Shown here one piece after another: positions 1 to 7,675 of a stretch of 43,857 bases of DNA (position 1 is its first letter; the number at the start of each line of letters is the position of its first letter). This stretch comes from Promethearchaeota archaeon (GTDB lineage: Archaea; Asgardarchaeota; Lokiarchaeia; Sigyniarchaeales; SOKP01). A program made the translations under genes and the position numbers. Under the pieces are notes generated by a model. The model had not been told where the DNA came from and made no database searches. It worked only from the letters and a program-made list of their open reading frames with translations. The DNA lies in NCBI GenBank assembly GCA_004524535.1, contig SDNY01000016.1, positions 1 through 43,857 of the forward strand, read 5' to 3'.

Positions 1-2183
1 TCTCCCAATGGAATTAACTTCGCTTCTACAATATGACCTCCCACACCATTATATTCTTCAGGTGTTCGGACATCTATCAAAACCGCTGGTTTGTCTTCTG
101 AATTAAGTCTTTCATATAACTCCTCTACTGTTATGTCTGAAATGGGAGGTGCCTCTAGAGGTCTTAATTCTTTTCTTGTTTTTTTCTTGGCTTTAATAGG
201 TGCGCTAATCTCATCAACAGAAAGCTCTCCTTTTTGAAGGATTGCGACCATTTTTCCTTCTTCTTTACCTAAATATAATAATTCGACCGCCTCAGTAAGC
301 TTAGCATAAGCTTCTACACTTGATTTAAAACTAGGATCAGTAGCATAAATCTTTAATTTTTTATTTTCAGGAAGAGTTTCTAAAGATTTTATTAAAGCGT
401 TTAAGGGACCAGGGCAGGATAATCCACATGCATCTATAACTACATAATTATCATCTTCCACAGATTTTTCCTTTACAAATTCCTCCATAATTTCACTTGT
501 ACCACCGCAGGCAGCTACAATTTCTTCTGTAGTAGCAGAGGCAATTTCGTAAGTTTTAAATCCTCCCGTCAATTCATATATTTCTTTATACCCCCGTTGT
601 AGCAATATTCGAGTAGCTAGATAGCTCCTATAACCCACTTCACAAAATGTTATTATAGGCTTTCCTTTTGGAATCTCATTTAATCGGTTTCTTAGGGCTT
701 CTAAGGGGATATTTATAGCTCCTTCAATAGTCCTTGATTTAAATTCTTCAGGAGTTCTAACATCTAGTATGATATTATCTTCTCCTTTAAGCTTATCTAT
801 ATCATGCCAGTGCCAAATAGGCATATCATTTTTCAAGTAATTGGCTGCGATGAAACCTGCCATATTTACCGGATCTTTAGCAGAACCATAGGGAGGAGCA
901 TAAGTTAATTCTAATTCTTCTAAATCAAACACGGTACCTCCCATTTTAATGATTGTTGAAATAACATCAATTCTTTTTTCACTTCCAGAACCGCCTACAA
1001 TCTGAGCTCCTAAAACTTTTCCCGAGGGGTCTTCGAATAATAATTTAAATGCCATTGGAACTGCTCCAGGATAATACCCTGCGTGATTATTAGGATGTAA
1101 ATATATTTTTTCATAATTTAAATCCGTATTTTTTAATTGTTTTTCCGTTAGACCAACTGTAGCTACGGTAATATCAAAAACCTTTACAACTGAAGCCCCT
1201 AAAAATCCTTTATATTGAGATTTTCTTCCTGCTATGTTCTCTGCTGCAATCCTACCCTGTTTATTAGCTGGCCCCGCTAATGCCATTGATATTGGCTTTT
1301 TAGTTTGATAATGTAAGAATTGAATAGCATCACCAACCGCATAAATATTTGGATCTGAGGTTAACATATTCCCATTAACAACGATATGTCCTCGTTCTCC
1401 TAATTCAAGACCCGCCTCTTTTGCCAATGTATTTTCTGGTCGAATTCCTACTGACATTATTATTAAATCTGTATCGATCGTACGTCCATTTTTAGTCTTT
1501 ACATTTATAATTCCATCTGGATCTCGCTCAAAAGAATCCACAGGGTCCTCTAACACTAAACAAACTCCATTCAAGATTAATTCTTGATGGATAAATTGAG
1601 CCATCTCCCTATCTATGGGCGGCATTACTTGATCGAGCATCTCTACAATTTTTACCTTAATGCCTTTTTTAACTAAATTCTCAACCATCTCCAATCCAAT
1701 AAATCCTCCTCCCACAACAACTGCTTTTTTAATTTGAGAATTATCGACAAATTTTCGAATTTTAACGGCATCTGGAATTGTCCATAGTTGATAATATGGT
1801 ACTTCTTCAAGACCCGGAAAAGGAGGAAGTATCGGAGTTGAACCTGTCGCTAATATAAGATAATTATATTCTAAATCATATTCATCTTGATCCTCTAAAT
1901 TTCTCACTTTAACAGTTTTATTCTTTCGATCTATTGAACTTACTTCGTTATTTACTCTCACATCTATATTAAATCTATCAAAAAATATCTGAGGAGGAAC
2001 TAATTCTAAGGAACTTCGATCTTTTATCACATTGCCCACATAATATGGTAATCCACAATTGGCAAAAGATACATACGGACCACGATCAAGCATAATTATT
2101 TCGATATTTTCTTTAAGGCGTCTTAATCGAGCAGCAGCGGATGCTCCACCCGCAACACCACCAATAATCACTACTCTTTCCAT
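1..2183 (-). CDS. CoA-disulfide/persulfide reductase fused to rhodanese, TusA and a second rhodanese domain (3' end runs off the window)
   Basis: Absent from the ORF track (runs off the edge). Manual translation from ATG 2183: MERVVIIGGVAGGASAAARLRR (FAD), SFANCGLPY (catalytic Cys), VVGGGFIGLE (NAD(P)H), LELTYAPPYGSAKDP; rhodanese 1 (ITFCEVGYRS); TusA (IDACGLSCPGP...ATDPSF); rhodanese 2 (LIDVRTPEEYNGVGGHI). Confidence 0.93.
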   Translation of the reverse strand, partial: MERVVIIGGVAGGASAAARLRRLKENIEIIMLDRGPYVSFANCGLPYYVGNVIKDRSSLELVPPQIFFDRFNIDVRVNNEVSSIDRKNKTVKVRNLEDQDEYDLEYNYLILATGSTPILPPFPGLEEVPYYQLWTIPDAVKIRKFVDNSQIKKAVVVGGGFIGLEMVENLVKKGIKVKIVEMLDQVMPPIDREMAQFIHQELILNGVCLVLEDPVDSFERDPDGIINVKTKNGRTIDTDLIIMSVGIRPENTLAKEAGLELGERGHIVVNGNMLTSDPNIYAVGDAIQFLHYQTKKPISMALAGPANKQGRIAAENIAGRKSQYKGFLGASVVKVFDITVATVGLTEKQLKNTDLNYEKIYLHPNNHAGYYPGAVPMAFKLLFEDPSGKVLGAQIVGGSGSEKRIDVISTIIKMGGTVFDLEELELTYAPPYGSAKDPVNMAGFIAANYLKNDMPIWHWHDIDKLKGEDNIILDVRTPEEFKSRTIEGAINIPLEALRNRLNEIPKGKPIITFCEVGYRSYLATRILLQRGYKEIYELTGGFKTYEIASATTEEIVAACGGTSEIMEEFVKEKSVEDDNYVVIDACGLSCPGPLNALIKSLETLPENKKLKIYATDPSFKSSVEAYAKLTEAVELLYLGKEEGKMVAILQKGELSVDEISAPIKAKKKTRKELRPLEAPPISDITVEELYERLNSEDKPAVLIDVRTPEEYNGVGGHIVEAKLIPLG

Positions 2184-2236
2184 AATTATTAATCACAAAA
2201 ATAGGAATTTATCAAAATTATTATAATCAAGTAATG

Positions 2237-2247
2237 AAAAAAAAAAA
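2237..2247 (-). terminator. Possible oligo-U terminator after iscU
   Basis: T11 run on the minus strand ~15 nt downstream of the iscU stop. Oligo-T tracts are typical archaeal terminators, but T runs are common in this AT-rich DNA. Confidence 0.3.
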
Positions 2248-2262
2248 GTTTTTAATTCAATT

Positions 2263-3054
2263 CTAATCAAGAATTATTACTACGTCTACAAATAACTCAT
2301 ACTGCTCGTCCTCATCAAAGTCATGAATAACCACTTTTTCAACTTCGTCAAGTTCTCCTTTAATTTCAATTACTTCAGATTGATATAAGATCTTAACATC
2401 AGAACGCTCAAGTTTTTTCCGTATTTCTACCCTACCTGGTGTAGATTTAGCAGAAGTAACTAGTATAACTCTACCCGTATATTCAGTCAATTTTAAAGCT
2501 AACTCTAAAGATTCATCTCCTGTATCGGAGACTATAATTCTTTTATCTCTTAATTGTTCTAAATCATCAACTTTTTTATATACACCTTTACCTAGAAATT
2601 CTTCTACTCCAAGTATAACTCTAACTTCTAACTGGCAGGATGTTACTACCTCTATTTCTGGTTTTGAACCCGTGCGGTAATTATCTATAGCAGCCTGTAA
2701 TGCATCTGCCGCTAAGTTCGAGCAATGCATTTTAATAGGGGGCAAGCCATCTAATTCGTCAGCTACATCACCTCTAGATATCTTATATGCCTCGTCAAGT
2801 GTCATACCTTTAGCCATTTCAGTTATCATTGAGGATGTTGAAACGGCTGAGCCACAACCAAACGTTTTAAATTTTATATCAGTAATAATTTCTTCTCCTT
2901 CTTTGTTTTTTCCCACTTTAATGTAGATCCACATTAGATCTCCACATACAGGATTACCAACCTTACCAACTCCGTCAGCATCTTCTATTTCGCCAACATT
3001 TCTTGGGTTCCTAAAGTGATCCATAACTTTTTCAGTATATTTATGCACACTCAT
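2263..3054 (-). CDS. iscU: IscU/NifU Fe-S scaffold with a C-terminal degenerate thioredoxin-reductase NADPH-binding domain
   Basis: YTEKVMDHFRNPRNVG, NPVCGD, FKTFGCGSA and KMHCSNLA are intact. The C-terminal ~120 aa resemble the TrxB NADPH domain (GVEEFLGKGV...KRIIV...SLELALKL...EVIEIKG...ELFVDVVII). SD AGGAGG lies upstream. Confidence 0.92.
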   Translation of the reverse strand: MSVHKYTEKVMDHFRNPRNVGEIEDADGVGKVGNPVCGDLMWIYIKVGKNKEGEEIITDIKFKTFGCGSAVSTSSMITEMAKGMTLDEAYKISRGDVADELDGLPPIKMHCSNLAADALQAAIDNYRTGSKPEIEVVTSCQLEVRVILGVEEFLGKGVYKKVDDLEQLRDKRIIVSDTGDESLELALKLTEYTGRVILVTSAKSTPGRVEIRKKLERSDVKILYQSEVIEIKGELDEVEKVVIHDFDEDEQYELFVDVVIILD

Positions 3055-4245
3055 TTAATTTACCTCCTTTTTAATTTGTTCTAAAAATTTTGGTGGTGTA
3101 AGAGGTGATAAAACTCTTAACTTTCTTACTACCTCTGGTAAAACTTCTATAATTTTATCAACATCTTTTTCCTCAGAAAATCTTCCTAATGTCAGTAATA
3201 AGCTACCATGTGCCTCTTCATGCAATAGACCACATGATATTAACGTATGGGAAGGTTCAAGCGTTTTTGAAGAGCAAGCTGATCCAGTGGCTACTTCTAC
3301 ATTTTCATCTTTTAGAGCGAGTAGTAATGACTCACCCTCAATATAATCAAAGCGGAAATTCGCATTATGAGATGTCCGTTCTTCAGGGTGTCCGTTTAAG
3401 TAGGATTTAGGGATCTTTAAAATTCCCTCAATCAGTTTATCTCTTAATTTTTTCAATCTTGCAGCTTCTGTATTAATTTCAGCTTTCATTATTTCTGCTG
3501 CTTTAGCAAAACCCACAATTCCAGGCATGTTTTCTGAACCTGATCGCATCCCCTTCTCTTGGCCACCACCAATAATTATTGGATTCACCCTTACCCCTTT
3601 TTTTAAATATAAAGCACCAATCCCTCTAGGGCCATAAATTTCATTGGAAGAAAGAGTCAATAAATCGAATGGAACCTTTTGCACGTCTATAGGAACAGAA
3701 GATTGCGTAGCTACCGCATCAGAATGGAACCAAACTTTATTTTTTTGGGCGATTTCCGCGATTTCTTCTATAGGTTGTAAAGTTCCAATTTCATTACTAG
3801 CTGTAGATATTGAAATTAAAATGGTTTTATCATTTATCAAACGCTCAAGTTTATTCAGATTAATTCTCCCATATTGATCAACTGAAAGTCGACTTACTTT
3901 AAATCCCTCTCTTTCTAGATATTTTCCTATATTTAAAATTGAGATATGCTCGATTTCTGAGATAATTATATGATTTCCTTTTCTCTTATTTCGTAATGCT
4001 CCTCCAATTATCGCAAGATTATTTGATTCTGTGGCACCAGAAGTAAAGATTATATTGTCTGGGCTTGGAGCATTGATAAATTCTGCTATTGTTTGTCTAG
4101 ACTCTTCTAATTTATTCGTTGCATTATAACCATAAAGATGTAATGAGGATGGATTACCAAATTCTTCTATAAAATATGGTTTCATCGCATCAAATACACG
4201 CGGATCCACTGGTTTAGCTGCTTGATAATCTAAGTAAGCACTCAT
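3055..4245 (-). CDS. iscS: IscS/NifS-family (class V aminotransferase) protein lacking the PLP lysine
   Basis: YLD...FGNPSSLH, FTSGATESNN, EH, NEIGT, GGGQE, RSGSEN and GSACSS (persulfide Cys) are present. SSNEIYGPRG replaces canonical SxHKxYGPKG. Confidence 0.93.
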   Translation of the reverse strand: MSAYLDYQAAKPVDPRVFDAMKPYFIEEFGNPSSLHLYGYNATNKLEESRQTIAEFINAPSPDNIIFTSGATESNNLAIIGGALRNKRKGNHIIISEIEHISILNIGKYLEREGFKVSRLSVDQYGRINLNKLERLINDKTILISISTASNEIGTLQPIEEIAEIAQKNKVWFHSDAVATQSSVPIDVQKVPFDLLTLSSNEIYGPRGIGALYLKKGVRVNPIIIGGGQEKGMRSGSENMPGIVGFAKAAEIMKAEINTEAARLKKLRDKLIEGILKIPKSYLNGHPEERTSHNANFRFDYIEGESLLLALKDENVEVATGSACSSKTLEPSHTLISCGLLHEEAHGSLLLTLGRFSEEKDVDKIIEVLPEVVRKLRVLSPLTPPKFLEQIKKEVN

Positions 4246-4286
4246 TATTTATCCCTCCGTTTTATAAAAAAAATTAAAGAAATAAA

Positions 4287-4643
4287 TTAAAACCACATGG
4301 TAGCATCAGCTTCTAATGCTAAATCATTTAAAGTTGCTGCTCCAACAATTTTAACACCTGGAATTAACTCAACTTTCTCCCAACCCAACATTCTTTTTGA
4401 GGCTTCACAAACTAAAATTTCTACACCCGCTTCCAAAGTTTTATCAATCATTTCTTTAACAGATGGAAAATCACCCAATTTTATTTTTTCGGCCTCCCCT
4501 GGTTTTAATATTTTTAAACCTGTCCCTAAATAATAAACTATTGCATTAATATCCATAGCTTTTGCTGTCTGTGCCAACACTAGCGGAGAATATTGACGTT
4601 CAGGATCGTCGCTTGTTTGTACATACAATATGCTTTTTCCCAT
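4287..4643 (-). CDS. DsrE/DsrF-like sulfur-transfer protein
   Basis: 118 aa with the DsrE pattern: VYYLGTGLKIL...GVEILVCEAS (conserved Cys)...VGAATLNDLALEAD. Confidence 0.85.
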   Translation of the reverse strand: MGKSILYVQTSDDPERQYSPLVLAQTAKAMDINAIVYYLGTGLKILKPGEAEKIKLGDFPSVKEMIDKTLEAGVEILVCEASKRMLGWEKVELIPGVKIVGAATLNDLALEADATMWF

Positions 4644-4660
4644 TTCGCATCACTCTTATT

Positions 4661-4915
4661 TTATTTTTTTTTCTTAAAAATAAATGTTAGAATATCGTCC
4701 TCCTTTCTAAAATCTAAAATTTCTGTCTCAGTTCTTTTAGCCCACCTTTGCAAATCTTCTTCAGCAGCAGGATCGTCAGCAATGACTTTAAAACACTGAC
4801 CAATTTCAAGAGTTTCAGATAGATTTCTTACTTCAAATAAAGGTTCTGGACAAAATAATCCAGTTGTATCCAACTCCTCTTCAATTTCAAATTCATTATT
4901 TTCCTTATCACTCAA
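4661..4915 (-). CDS. tusA: TusA/SirA sulfur carrier
   Basis: LDTTGLFCPEP (CPxP) and ADDPAAEEDLQRWA. The start is probably TTG at 4915, because the GTG at 4930 overlaps the SD-like GAGGT. Confidence 0.9.
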   Translation of the reverse strand: MSDKENNEFEIEEELDTTGLFCPEPLFEVRNLSETLEIGQCFKVIADDPAAEEDLQRWAKRTETEILDFRKEDDILTFIFKKKK

Positions 4916-5172
4916 TTTTTTCAACCTCACTTTTTATGATTAATAAGATAATTTTTTGCTTTATATTGATTTCGTAAATTAGAAAGGATCTTTTTTGTTA
5001 TGTTTACTGTTATTATTCAGATCTTTTACTAAAAAGATAAACATTATTCTTATAATTTAGTTAAAATAAAGAATAATTGAAGAATTAGTATAAAGCAATA
5101 TTAATAAGACTTTTATAATTTATAAACTTCGAAAAAAATATTTTGAAAATCCTTGAAATTAAAATAGAGATT

Positions 5173-6018
5173 TTAAGTTATATATGGTTTTAATAATTGT
5201 AATCTTGTTTCTCTTGATGTTCTATTTCTTACAGGATTCCAATTTCCATACAGTTCTTCATGAAAAGTGGGCTTTTTAATTCTATAAAATATCCCAATGG
5301 GCAGTTTATCTTTTTTTTTAACAATTTTCATCGCCTCATCGAAAGATTTCGGTTCTTTTTCAAGTATTTCAGTATTCTCTCGATAGAATTGCCAAGTGTC
5401 TTTATATGCAACAGCTGGTTGTAAAATTTCTAAGAATGAAAAACCTTTATGCTCAATAGCTTTTACCATAAGATCTGTGAGATGTGCTTGTTTTCCTGGA
5501 AATCCTCTAGCAATGAATGTTGCACCTGCTTCTAGCATAATTGCAAGAGCATTTAAGGGTTCTTCAACACTTCCTTTGGGAGTAGAGGGGCCTTTCCATC
5601 CTTTTTCTGAAAGAGGTGTATATTGACCAGTTGTTAAAGCATAAACACCATTATTATGTAAAATAAGAGTCATATTAAAGTTTCTTTTAGCGGCAAATAT
5701 CGTGTGTGCAAGTCCTTCTCCCATCGCGTTTCCATCACCCGAAAATGTTATAACGTTTAATTCGGGATTCGCAATTTTCATTCCTTGGACCGTTGCAATA
5801 TCTCTCCCATGTAGTGAATATAGACCACTCATATTCAAATAATCAAAAATCTTAGCATGACATCCAATTCCAGCGGAAATTACAATGTATTCTCTATTAA
5901 TCCCTTTTTCCTCTAATTTTACTATCGCTTTTTTAAAAGCACTCAAAATACCAAAATTCCCGCAAATTCGGCGACCTCGGCACCAAGTATTTTCAGCATA
6001 TGTGTCTAAATCATCCAT
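5173..6018 (-). CDS. korB: 2-oxoacid:ferredoxin oxidoreductase beta subunit (TPP-binding) with an atypical Cys ligand set
   Basis: NTWC...CGNFGI, GIGCH, LHGR, SGDG...NNGVYALTTGQ. Directly downstream of the alpha subunit. Confidence 0.9.
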   Translation of the reverse strand: MDDLDTYAENTWCRGRRICGNFGILSAFKKAIVKLEEKGINREYIVISAGIGCHAKIFDYLNMSGLYSLHGRDIATVQGMKIANPELNVITFSGDGNAMGEGLAHTIFAAKRNFNMTLILHNNGVYALTTGQYTPLSEKGWKGPSTPKGSVEEPLNALAIMLEAGATFIARGFPGKQAHLTDLMVKAIEHKGFSFLEILQPAVAYKDTWQFYRENTEILEKEPKSFDEAMKIVKKKDKLPIGIFYRIKKPTFHEELYGNWNPVRNRTSRETRLQLLKPYIT

Positions 6019-6019
6019 T

Positions 6020-7675
6020 TTAAATTACCTCCTTAATTTTTTCAGCTAATTCAATTGGATCAAAAGGACGCCCATCGTACTTATTAATTAGATACTTACT
6101 CTGAATATTTGCCTTTTCTTTTAGAAGTGAGGTGAATTGTCCCATTTTGCTCAATTCTATGGTTATTACGGGCTCATCTTTATATCTTTCCAGTTCCCAT
6201 ACTGGTAAGGGACTAAGATATATTGGCTGGATTATAGTCGCTTCAATGTCTCCATAGTGAAGAGCTTCTAATACGCTCATTGTAGTTGAACCATATGTAA
6301 AAATTAAAGGCCCCCCGGTTCCATATACATTTACCGTTTTTAGTTGCTTTAAAAAATCAATAATATGCATATTTTTTTTATACCTTTTATTATGCATTTT
6401 TGTTATTAGTTCGGGATTTTCAGTAGTTATCCCTAACTCATCATGTTCATAACTCGTCCATTTAATTATTTCTTTAGATGGTGGAAATAGTAATGGAGAA
6501 ATTCCGTCTTCTGTATCAAGATATCTTTTGTAGTCACCACTTTTATGGTATTTAGGTTCTGCCCACTTTATATTCTTCATCTCCATTTCAATTGTCATGC
6601 TACTCTCGGATAGATGTTTTTCAGTTAATATAATCCCTGGAGTTTGAAATTTCCAAACAAGATCAAGTAATTCTGCAGTTAGATAAAATGCCTCTTTTAT
6701 TGAACCAGGACATGCTACAATCCTTAAAAATTCACCATGTCCAGCATTTAAAGCAAAATTCAAATCACCTTGCTCTGTATAGGTTGGTACGCCTGTAGCA
6801 GGACCAGGTCTCATTGATAGGACGCATAATATCGGCGCTTCAGCCATTCCTGCCAATGAGAGCCCTTCAACCATAAGAGCAAATCCCCCTCCACTTGATC
6901 CAACCATAGCTTTAGCTCCTGCAAATGCAGATCCTATAGCCATATTAATAACAGCAATTTCATTCTCTGGATGTATAACTGCCAAACCAAATTTTTCTGC
7001 TTGAGCTGCTAATATGTGTAAAATAGAGGATGCAGGAGTCATGGGATACCCATAATAGGTATCTAAACCTCCTGCAATAGCTCCTAGTGCTATAGATTGA
7101 TTGCCCGTTAGGATAGGTCTTTTTTTATCTCCATTTTGAACTTCAAATTTATTATTTATAGTAGGAAATACAATATCGTAAATAGCATTCGCAAATGAGA
7201 TGTTATCTTCTACAAAACTAGGGTATTCTTTTTTAATTATTTCATTCAAATCATTTTTACTAATTCCTATTGAACACGCTAAAATAGCAACTGCTCCCAC
7301 ACCATATAAAAGATTTTTTGCAGGAAATTTTTTAGCTTCGCTATAAAAAGGGACACCAATTCCTTCAGCATTGTCAATTTCATCAGAATTATAAATAATG
7401 AGACCATTTTTATCAAGCTCATTGGCATGTATCTCATAACTTCTTTTATCTGAATTTACAATTAAACCTGCTTTCATATAATGACTATGTATCTCACTTG
7501 TAGCAGTGCTTATAACTGAGAAATTATGTCCTCCTCTTATTAAACTCATATAGTCATCCATCTGAAATACTTGTCTTCCTCTCTCAATAAAAATTTGAGA
7601 AGCAACAGAACCAGCCTTTTTTACACCTTCTCCAGCTTTACCTCCTACGATAAATGTAAAAACATTTTTTTTTAT
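6020..7675 (-). CDS. korA: 2-oxoacid:ferredoxin oxidoreductase alpha subunit (gamma-alpha fusion)
   Basis: YMSLIRGGHNF, GNQSIALG, GYPMTPAS, ENEIA, SSGGGFALM, RPGPATGVPT. The frame stays open upstream of the ORF-track ATG (7561) and encodes the conserved VFTFIVGGKAGEG. The most upstream start-like codon in frame is ATA 7675, 6 nt after GGTGA. Confidence 0.92.
   Translation of the reverse strand: MKKNVFTFIVGGKAGEGVKKAGSVASQIFIERGRQVFQMDDYMSLIRGGHNFSVISTATSEIHSHYMKAGLIVNSDKRSYEIHANELDKNGLIIYNSDEIDNAEGIGVPFYSEAKKFPAKNLLYGVGAVAILACSIGISKNDLNEIIKKEYPSFVEDNISFANAIYDIVFPTINNKFEVQNGDKKRPILTGNQSIALGAIAGGLDTYYGYPMTPASSILHILAAQAEKFGLAVIHPENEIAVINMAIGSAFAGAKAMVGSSGGGFALMVEGLSLAGMAEAPILCVLSMRPGPATGVPTYTEQGDLNFALNAGHGEFLRIVACPGSIKEAFYLTAELLDLVWKFQTPGIILTEKHLSESSMTIEMEMKNIKWAEPKYHKSGDYKRYLDTEDGISPLLFPPSKEIIKWTSYEHDELGITTENPELITKMHNKRYKKNMHIIDFLKQLKTVNVYGTGGPLIFTYGSTTMSVLEALHYGDIEATIIQPIYLSPLPVWELERYKDEPVITIELSKMGQFTSLLKEKANIQSKYLINKYDGRPFDPIELAEKIKEVI

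Follow-up and report, generated by a model that had tools for sequence, protein, structure and literature searches.

Why should a scaffold protein for iron-sulfur (Fe-S) clusters carry a piece of a flavoprotein at its C-terminus? The question is raised by a gene on contig SDNY01000016.1 of the Promethearchaeota archaeon assembly GCA_004524535.1. In this gene an IscU domain is followed by a tail that resembles the NAD(P)H domain of thioredoxin reductase (TrxR). The stretch analyzed, 43,857 nucleotides long, is called the window, and the tail is called the relic. Our analyses point to the leftover NAD(P)H domain of a flavoprotein without a CxxC motif, once fused whole to IscU and now kept as a clamp on the partner protein IscS. 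We give this reading of its origin and retention an even chance of being right. The gene and its parts are as follows.

2263..3054, - strand: the whole IscU-relic fusion gene, one open reading frame of 263 amino acids (aa) plus stop
2671..3042, - strand: IscU/NifU_N scaffold domain, residues 5-128 (Pfam NifU_N, PF01592, E 9.9e-47)
2617..2670, - strand: flexible linker, residues 129-146 (18 residues), with a predicted local distance difference test (pLDDT) value <50 at residues 136-144
2266..2616, - strand: relic NAD(P)H-type domain of a TrxR-like flavoprotein, residues 147-263 (117 residues), acidic and without FAD domain
2563..2580, - strand: YKKVDD, residues 159-164, at the position of the TrxB CxxC (from the alignment with the TrxB of the same genome and from the domain alignment)
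2509..2526, - strand: degenerate dinucleotide motif D177-T-G179-D-E-S182 replacing GxGxxA (from column counts)
2449..2457, - strand: T200-S201-A202 replacing HRR/YRG of the 2'-phosphate site (YRG in the genome's own TrxB, HRR in a second TrxB)
2284..2322, - strand: signature HD(F/L)DEDExYELFVD, residues 245-257, with Y252 and L254-D257 inside and the DEDE loop outside the predicted IscS interface

Family, motifs and conservation of the tail

Pfam Pyr_redox (PF00070) was matched at residues 178-244 with 22.2 bits, barely above the cut-off of 22. Residues 147-261 aligned to positions 117-232 of the 300 in TIGR01292 (thioredoxin-disulfide reductase; E 7.7e-12), and the tail alone matched the same profile at E 1.5e-12. 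When the tail alone was compared with solved chains, 29 were found at E <= 1, all of them TrxR or TrxR-like ferredoxin-NADP+ reductases (FNR) except two weak rows for GntR regulators (E 0.13 and 0.44). A profile built from 18 tails reached 39 solved chains at E <= 0.001, every one a TrxR, AhpF or TrxR-like FNR, with 2zbw_A as the best (E 5.9e-15), and 15 of the 18 tails matched PF00070 independently. An AlphaFold2 model based on a 30-sequence alignment had a mean pLDDT of 84.4, with residues 136-144 disordered. The tail of this model was superposed by Foldseek on the NAD(P)H domains of 2zbw_A (root-mean-square deviation, rmsd, 1.8 Å over 122 columns), 3f8p_A (2.2 Å over 124) and 5mjk_A (2.0 Å over 122). 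A preliminary description of this DNA had taken the tail for a TrxB-type NADPH domain fused to IscU and had proposed a structural comparison of this kind. The Pfam, TIGR01292, tail-profile and Foldseek results all bear it out, and the fold matched is of the Pyr_redox/TrxR type.

The FAD domain is missing. Neither of its halves was matched in TIGR01292 (positions 1-116 and 233-300), and both were absent in the alignment with the longer relatives described below. A search of the source genome with the flavoprotein part of such a relative found no orphan FAD-domain gene; its 17 matches were full-length TrxB (contigs C39 and C126, both with CxxC), other flavoproteins, and the relic itself. With FAD domain and nucleotide motifs both tested and absent, the protein on sequence grounds is not a member of the TrxR/FNR family. 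The canonical TrxB of the source genome (CASC) runs into the end of a 230-aa gene that by eye is thioredoxin/glutaredoxin-like (L002:447-1139 and 1126-2070, which overlap). Stand-alone copies of the relic were also considered. The candidates, matches of 107-200 aa of which 20 were inspected, mostly start inside IscU (MHCSNLAADAL...) or at contig ends and are fragments. Three of the short tail matches (P0146, P0147, and P0151) begin with unrelated sequence, perhaps as chimeric gene calls.

The motifs of a working reductase are replaced as well. GRGVSYCASCD in the TrxB of the same genome corresponds to GKGV-YKKV-DD in the tail, which leaves no CxxC, and VIGGSDSA corresponds to VSDTGDES. The loss of the CxxC, the GGG loop, the HRR motif, and the FAD domain, each named in the preliminary description, was thus found again in this alignment. 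Column counts were made over 76 fused sequences, archaeal and bacterial. Position 177, the first glycine of GxGxxA, was D in 61, H in 11, and E in 3 of them; G179 was present in all 76 and S182 in 73. The HRR position began with T in 75 members, followed by S (48) or P (16) and then by A (52) or E (10). Judged by these motifs, the relic is almost certainly not a classical dinucleotide binder.

The domain is nevertheless conserved rather than decaying. Fourteen residues were invariant in all 76 members (G149, G157, R172, G179, R195, V196, G233, E248, Y252, L254, F255, V256, D257, and V259). The pairwise ratio of nonsynonymous to synonymous substitution rates (omega; dN/dS by the NG86 method, 400 pairs at 80-97% identity) was 0.055 for the relic, 0.035 for IscU, and 0.098 for the linker, values that are approximate with dS near 1. 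The median net charge of the relic was -9.5 (n=20) or -11.5 (n=76), compared with -3 in the long forms and -2 in TrxR. The relic is kept by purifying selection, and its conservation from Asgard archaea to bacteria agrees with the earlier view of an exapted domain.

The N-terminal part is an IscU domain. PF01592 was matched at 158.7 bits (cut-off 22) and TIGR03419 (NifU_clost) at 195.6 bits (cut-off 187.9), and the cluster ligands C37, D39, C67, H110, and C111 were invariant in 30 aligned sequences. The N-domain of the model was superposed on 7c8m_A (E 1.6e-17, 68% identity, rmsd 1.6 Å over 124 columns), and its Foldseek identity to IscU of Archaeoglobus fulgidus (4eb5_C) was 67%. With the NifU_N score, the ligands, the fold, and the adjacent iscS gene, the product belongs to the IscU/MisU family. 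It would act as a working IscU-type (MisU) Fe-S scaffold that assembles and transfers clusters. In the linker, Cys140 (window 2635-2637) was present in 55 of the 76 fused proteins and absent from the aligned long forms; a role as mobile ligand or persulfide acceptor is conceivable.

Probable descent from a fused flavoprotein and distribution of the fusion

The longer relatives suggest how a free NAD(P)H domain came to stand behind IscU. A 448-aa protein of one family of the phylum (genome G117) consists of IscU followed by a complete TrxR-like flavoprotein, with GGGPAGL, GIYAAGD, and YGNGDQA (for GxGxxA) and without CxxC. Long-form relatives of 440-454 aa carry PF01592 together with pyridine-nucleotide-oxidoreductase families. 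They are labeled Jordarchaeaceae, Methanoperedens, Methanosarcinales, and Methanocomedens, and are found in databases under the names NifU, 'IscU 2', and thioredoxin reductase. Three matches of 318-326 aa (Freyarchaeum, Lokiarchaeia, and Jordarchaeum labels) cover the flavoprotein part only. The short form aligns to the IscU and the middle domain of the long form, with both FAD halves gone, and a CxxC was present in none of 19 long forms in the domain alignment. In the long-form locus (Jord-type), the genes upstream likewise encode TusA and an IscS without the lysine.

A maximum-likelihood tree was built for the domain from 58 rows and 115 columns. All 20 short forms grouped in one clade (support 100/100), and 19 long forms with one 331-aa relative in another (99/91). 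Short and long forms together stood apart from 18 canonical TrxR/FNR (95/85), an outgroup that was drawn from the tail-search matches and is of limited sampling. In this enzyme family, the NAD(P)H domain interrupts the FAD domain as an insertion. A free copy must therefore derive from a whole enzyme, so the simplest history is one fusion followed by a double deletion. A CxxC-less FNR-type flavoprotein would once have been fused whole to IscU, and both halves of its FAD domain would then have been deleted, while the dinucleotide site decayed and the domain turned strongly acidic; the direction from long to short is inferred. Since the best relatives of the tail are CxxC-less FNR (2zbw, 3lzw, and 5xhu) and the long forms have no CxxC either, the parent was probably an FNR-like reductase without CxxC, and not a TrxB that lost its cysteines. 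The preliminary description had spoken of a redox-dead TrxB. The absence of redox motifs stands, and the parent has to be revised, as the cysteines were likely never there. On this account, the relic would illustrate neatly how a double deletion can turn a catalytic domain into a structural module.

The fusion occurs far beyond the source assembly. The best 120 database matches were all 263-267 aa long at 98-100% coverage, and the named ones were labeled Promethearchaeota. Across the phylum, the tail was matched in 218 of 399 genomes (E <= 1e-8). Five of these matches were weak (near 1e-9) and six were long forms, which leaves about 207 genomes with the short fusion, in open frames nearly all of 259-302 aa. 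The weak TrxR-like matches inspected in one genome (G007) were TrxR-like frames of 318-338 aa. In five further genomes of the phylum, the fused gene (long in one, short in four) was among the strongest NifU_N matches, and in one of them it was the sole match. A wide scan, with a single genome for each prokaryotic species and Y[ED]LFVD... as the motif, returned 189 stretches; 178 of them were confirmed, and 80 were kept. The tail was fused to IscU in 78 of these 80 loci, and the remaining 2 were cut by the contig start.

The archaeal labels among the 80 loci included Promethearchaeota/-archaeia, Thor-, Hel-, Hermod-, Hod-, and Odinarchaeota. Loci L114, L116, and L133 are labeled Thorarchaeota and L115 Promethearchaeota, with open frames of 274-302 aa. 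The bacterial labels included Delta proteobacterium NaphS2, Deltaproteobacteria, Syntrophobacterales, Desulfatiglandales, Aminicenantes, Stahlbacteria, Deferrimicrobium, a 'bacterium' chromosome, and Eubacteriales (records L106, L108-L110, L112, L117, L118, L120, L121, L124, L127, L129, L131, and L134). Labels of metagenome bins can be wrong; NaphS2 is an ordinary strain title, and two of the bacterial contigs are megabase-sized. The presence of the fusion and its neighbors in bacterial-labeled records implies, as far as such sequence records go, that the cluster moved between archaea and bacteria. One locus labeled Nanopelagicaceae (L095) has 71% identity to the relic of the window and the full Loki-type gene order, and is probably a mis-binned contig. 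On a Desulfatiglandales contig (L129:3587-4330), parts of IscS, IscU, and the relic are all matched within one 248-aa frame, which may be a rearranged or broken copy. At L144 (G278:C1:2028137-2028496), a second IscU stands in a 254-aa frame with an Arg/Pro/Gly-rich tail unlike the relic, which may be due to read-through or a frameshift.

The junction between the two domains is spanned without insertions or deletions by contigs of other sequencing runs (X2 record 10, 2285-3300; X3 record 18, 2499-2722). Contigs of two metatranscriptome libraries also span it, where DNA carry-over is possible, so that they are not proof of transcription. An assembly artefact is ruled out by the uniform lengths, the hundreds of genomes, and the independent contigs across the junction. 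The search in other genomes that the preliminary description had suggested therefore found a widespread fusion that is not unique to this assembly.

Gene neighborhood, predicted docking and rival explanations

The genes around the fusion in the window are as follows.

4661..4930, - strand: TusA sulfur carrier (Pfam TusA E 7.2e-18), upstream in the same direction
4287..4643, - strand: DsrE-family sulfur carrier (Pfam DsrE E 1.9e-15), upstream in the same direction
3055..4245, - strand: IscS/MisS partner (Pfam Aminotran_5) without the lysine that binds pyridoxal phosphate (PLP), having E202 in the motif SSNEIYGP and keeping the loop cysteine C324
3..2183, - strand: flavoprotein, CoADR/persulfide-reductase-like, downstream of the fusion gene and running off the window end

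The order on the - strand is tusA, dsrE, iscS, the IscU-relic gene, a gap of 79 bases, and the long flavoprotein gene. The ATG of the 263-aa fusion gene abuts the stop codon of iscS. The Pfam domains of the flavoprotein are Pyr_redox_2, Pyr_redox_dim, rhodanese, TusA, and rhodanese. Neighbors were counted in the 80 loci kept out of the 178 confirmed stretches. IscS lay directly upstream in 70 of them, TusA upstream in 60, and DsrE upstream in 30, and a CoADR-rhodanese flavoprotein gene lay downstream in 41, with at least 1500 bases of room downstream in 71 of the 80. The tusA-dsrE-iscS-iscU(relic) cluster (window 3-4930, - strand) recurs in Asgard archaea and anaerobic bacteria. This cluster, often extended by the CoADR-rhodanese-TusA-rhodanese flavoprotein, suggests a persulfide-carrier route into Fe-S assembly. 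Further upstream of tusA, two large open reading frames (window 5173-7561, - strand; 281 and 513 aa) look by eye like subunits of a 2-oxoacid:ferredoxin oxidoreductase. The source genome has five NifU_N genes in total. Its contig C173 (loci L003 and L138) encodes another IscS, in which the canonical lysine is kept (SAHKLYGP), and about 8 kb away a stand-alone IscU.

The IscS encoded next to the fusion is itself unusual. Its best solved relative is IscS2 of A. fulgidus (4eb5_A, E 3.8e-144). E202 (codon 3640-3642) stands where the PLP lysine belongs and aligns with D199 of 4eb5_A and with the K of 4r5f. Among the 68 IscS frames of the 80 loci that cover this site, 64 had D and 4 had E, and none had lysine; the loop cysteine (GSAC[ST]S) was kept in all 68. 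In A. fulgidus, the substitution has been reported to abolish desulfurase activity, and IscS supplies a cysteine ligand to the [2Fe-2S] cluster on IscU (PMC7585200). By analogy, the IscS of the window is probably a structural and cysteine-ligand partner and not a desulfurase.

A complex of two IscS copies (alignment of 25) and the relic (alignment of 18) was predicted with ESMFold2, together with three controls. The interface score ipSAE was 0.69, 0.68, and 0.69, and the best of the three controls reached 0.00. The partner pLDDT did not fall below 89, and at least 96% of contacts were shared between the runs. In calibration, the mark was reached by 58 of 80 solved complexes and by 2 of 110 mismatched pairs, counts that hold only roughly for this job. 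To our knowledge, no complex of the relic-IscS kind has been solved, so the pass is unlikely to stem from model memory. On the relic side, the predicted interface comprised D170, R172, G194, R195, E216, K221, E234, L235, E237, E239, K240, Y252, and L254-D257. Residues with at least 95% conservation made up 9 of these 16 positions compared with 13 of 101 elsewhere in the relic, a comparison made among related sequences. On the IscS side, the interface comprised residues 121, 123-124, 132, 135-136, 336-339, 341-342, and 386, with K132, G339, and H342 invariant in 25 sequences. IscS 336-342 corresponds, in a rough mapping from alignment ranges, to E. coli 340-346, beside the IscU site (E347, helix 379-391). 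Reversal of R340 (R340E) in E. coli IscS weakens the binding of CyaY, IscX, and ThiI, according to PMC2854127.

These predictions make a docking role of the relic on IscS plausible. The relic would be retained as a tethered clamp that docks next to the IscU site, through its R172, R195, K221, E239/K240, and Y252-D257 and through D123, K132, and the 336-342 loop of IscS, and it may also occupy a regulator-like site on IscS. The preliminary description had proposed an exapted docking or adaptor module and a modeled complex with IscS. The model turned out to be confident, and the docking part has gained in-silico support with IscS as the modeled partner, while a sensor role, its further suggestion, has become unlikely for NAD(P)H for reasons given below.

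Several points weigh against this account of origin and docking. The IscU-domain tree (44 rows) places the long forms inside the short ones with weak support; it is poorly resolved and includes 5 stand-alone IscU, 3 of them very divergent. The docking is a single in-silico model made from our own alignments, and the conservation of these sequences fed the model, so that the enrichment at the interface is not independent of it. The AlphaFold2 model had a predicted template modeling score (pTM) of 0.50, that is, two domains with no fixed mutual arrangement. The A. fulgidus IscS2-IscU complex forms without such a domain (4eb5_C has 138 residues), and a clamp is thus not required for binding. In four Thor-type loci (L114-L116 and L133), the fusion has no IscS next to it. 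That NAD(P)H binding was lost is read from motifs only. Docking also does not explain the invariant E248 and the DEDE loop, which lie outside the predicted interface and for which an iron-binding or partner-recruiting role is possible.

That loop leads to another explanation, in which the acidic relic works like frataxin (CyaY) or IscX, either by recruiting Fe2+ or by modulating IscS at the regulator site, whether or not it also acts as a clamp. The net charge of about -10 to -11, the invariant E248 with the D247/D249/E250 loop outside the predicted interface, and the estimated overlap of the IscS contacts with the region around R340 would fit such a role. However, the relic has no sequence or fold relation to frataxin or IscX, and the EDE motif is present too in the long forms, which have a flavin job, so we regard this explanation as unlikely. 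Slightly less likely again is an adaptor for a redox partner in trans, for example the neighboring CoADR-rhodanese-TusA flavoprotein, which the preliminary description had named, in place of the lost built-in reductase. The ancestor had its own reductase, an electron source is plausibly still needed, and the flavoprotein lies downstream in about half of the loci. Yet of the 71 loci that have 1500 bases or more of room downstream, 30 lack it there, and the source genome has no orphan FAD-domain gene that could serve in trans.

A smaller probability is given to dimerization of the relic, by which two IscU domains would be paired for reductive coupling of two [2Fe-2S] clusters into one [4Fe-4S] cluster. 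IscU dimers have been proposed as a step to [4Fe-4S] clusters in a review (PMC13066941), and the conserved surface could equally be a self-interface. The invariant residues, however, fit the confident predicted interface with IscS. In addition, TrxR-type enzymes dimerize through the FAD domain and not through the NAD(P)H domain. A role of the relic as a sensor of redox state or metabolites, with NAD(P)H or some other nucleotide still bound, is very improbable. The Rossmann-like fold with its central G179 and S182 is kept, but the first glycine is replaced by D, H, or E in 75 of 76 members and the HRR arginines are absent (T-S/P-A/E). A Rossmann fold with an acidic side chain where the pyrophosphate lies does not allow dinucleotide binding of the classical kind. 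Finally, the motif losses, and nothing more, would suit a functionless remnant or an assembly chimera, which we consider to have next to no chance of being right, as it is refuted by the omega of 0.055, the 14 invariant residues, the hundreds of genomes, and the junction-spanning contigs.

Novelty and relation to known systems

The fused proteins sit in public databases under the name NifU. A full-text literature search found no description of the short or the long fusion, within a coverage that did not extend to the paper defining the minimal two-gene Fe-S assembly system (MIS) and its supplements, and it found no experimental study of the long IscU-flavoreductase fusions. MIS was reportedly defined by Garcia et al. 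in 2022. The impression of the preliminary description that the fusion was new agrees with this search, and the protein is a widespread, conserved, and apparently undescribed variant of the IscU scaffold. For MisU, a 2026 review of Fe-S biogenesis gives, in the part available, IscU-like and three-domain NifU-like forms only; it calls MIS (MisS/MisU) the least studied Fe-S assembly system and treats as still open whether that system is self-contained (PMC13066941).

The electron source of MIS is, in our view, an open point. A scaffold that probably once carried a flavoreductase and has kept the putative docking domain of that enzyme, beside a lysine-less IscS and mostly TusA, suggests testable answers: it points to which protein supplied the electrons, where that protein was located, and why these IscS manage without PLP chemistry. 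We tentatively propose, as a possibility that we think rather doubtful, that the relic marks a former built-in electron donor. Lysine-less MIS-type systems would have taken persulfide from TusA/DsrE, reduced by an IscU-fused and IscS-docked flavoreductase. Loki-, Thor-, and Hel-type archaea and several anaerobic bacteria would then have placed the reductase on a protein of its own (perhaps CoADR-rhodanese-TusA) and retained the docking domain, both to clamp and to serve as an acidic iron or regulator site. If true, this would name the missing reductant and the frataxin-like element of minimal Fe-S assembly.

The closest known system is the (IscS-IscU)2 complex of A. fulgidus IscS2 and IscU (4eb5, 4eb7, and 4hvk, and the D199K variant 4r5f). 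Both are minimal two-gene (MIS-type) systems whose IscS lacks the PLP lysine, with D there and E202 here. In contrast, the A. fulgidus IscU is a single domain without a relic, and K132 of the IscS family of the window is not conserved in IscS2. The best relatives of the tail are the CxxC-less TrxR-like FNR (2zbw of Thermus thermophilus, YumC of Bacillus subtilis in 3lzw, 5xhu, and 6gas; profile E 5.9e-15 to 3.6e-10). They lack CxxC as the tail does, but they are complete enzymes with FAD and NAD(P)H domains and with GxGxxA and HRR-type motifs, whereas the tail is their middle domain with those motifs broken. The long fusions of IscU and FAD reductase (about 445 aa; Jordarchaeaceae, Freyarchaeum, Methanoperedens, and ANME-2/Methanosarcinales labels) share the IscU N-terminus and the VEKV...EDE...VD motifs with the short form, and the relic and their NAD(P)H domain are sister clades. 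Unlike the short form, they keep the FAD domain (GGGPAGL, GIYAAGD), GxGxxA, and a charge near neutral.

Two further comparisons concern proteins with a similar place in Fe-S assembly. In the E. coli ISC system, the small acidic proteins CyaY and IscX bind IscS close to its active-site loop, and their footprint includes R340 (PMC2854127); the equivalent loop is part of the site predicted for the relic. CyaY and IscX have no homology to the relic, are separate proteins and not tethered, and serve an E. coli IscS that is an active desulfurase. Three-domain NifU and NifU-like MisU also have an IscU-like N-domain with extra C-terminal domains, in a minimal system linked to NifS/IscS (PMC13066941). 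What they add is a ferredoxin-like [2Fe-2S] domain plus a cysteine-containing Nfu domain, whereas the relic is a cysteine-free Rossmann domain.

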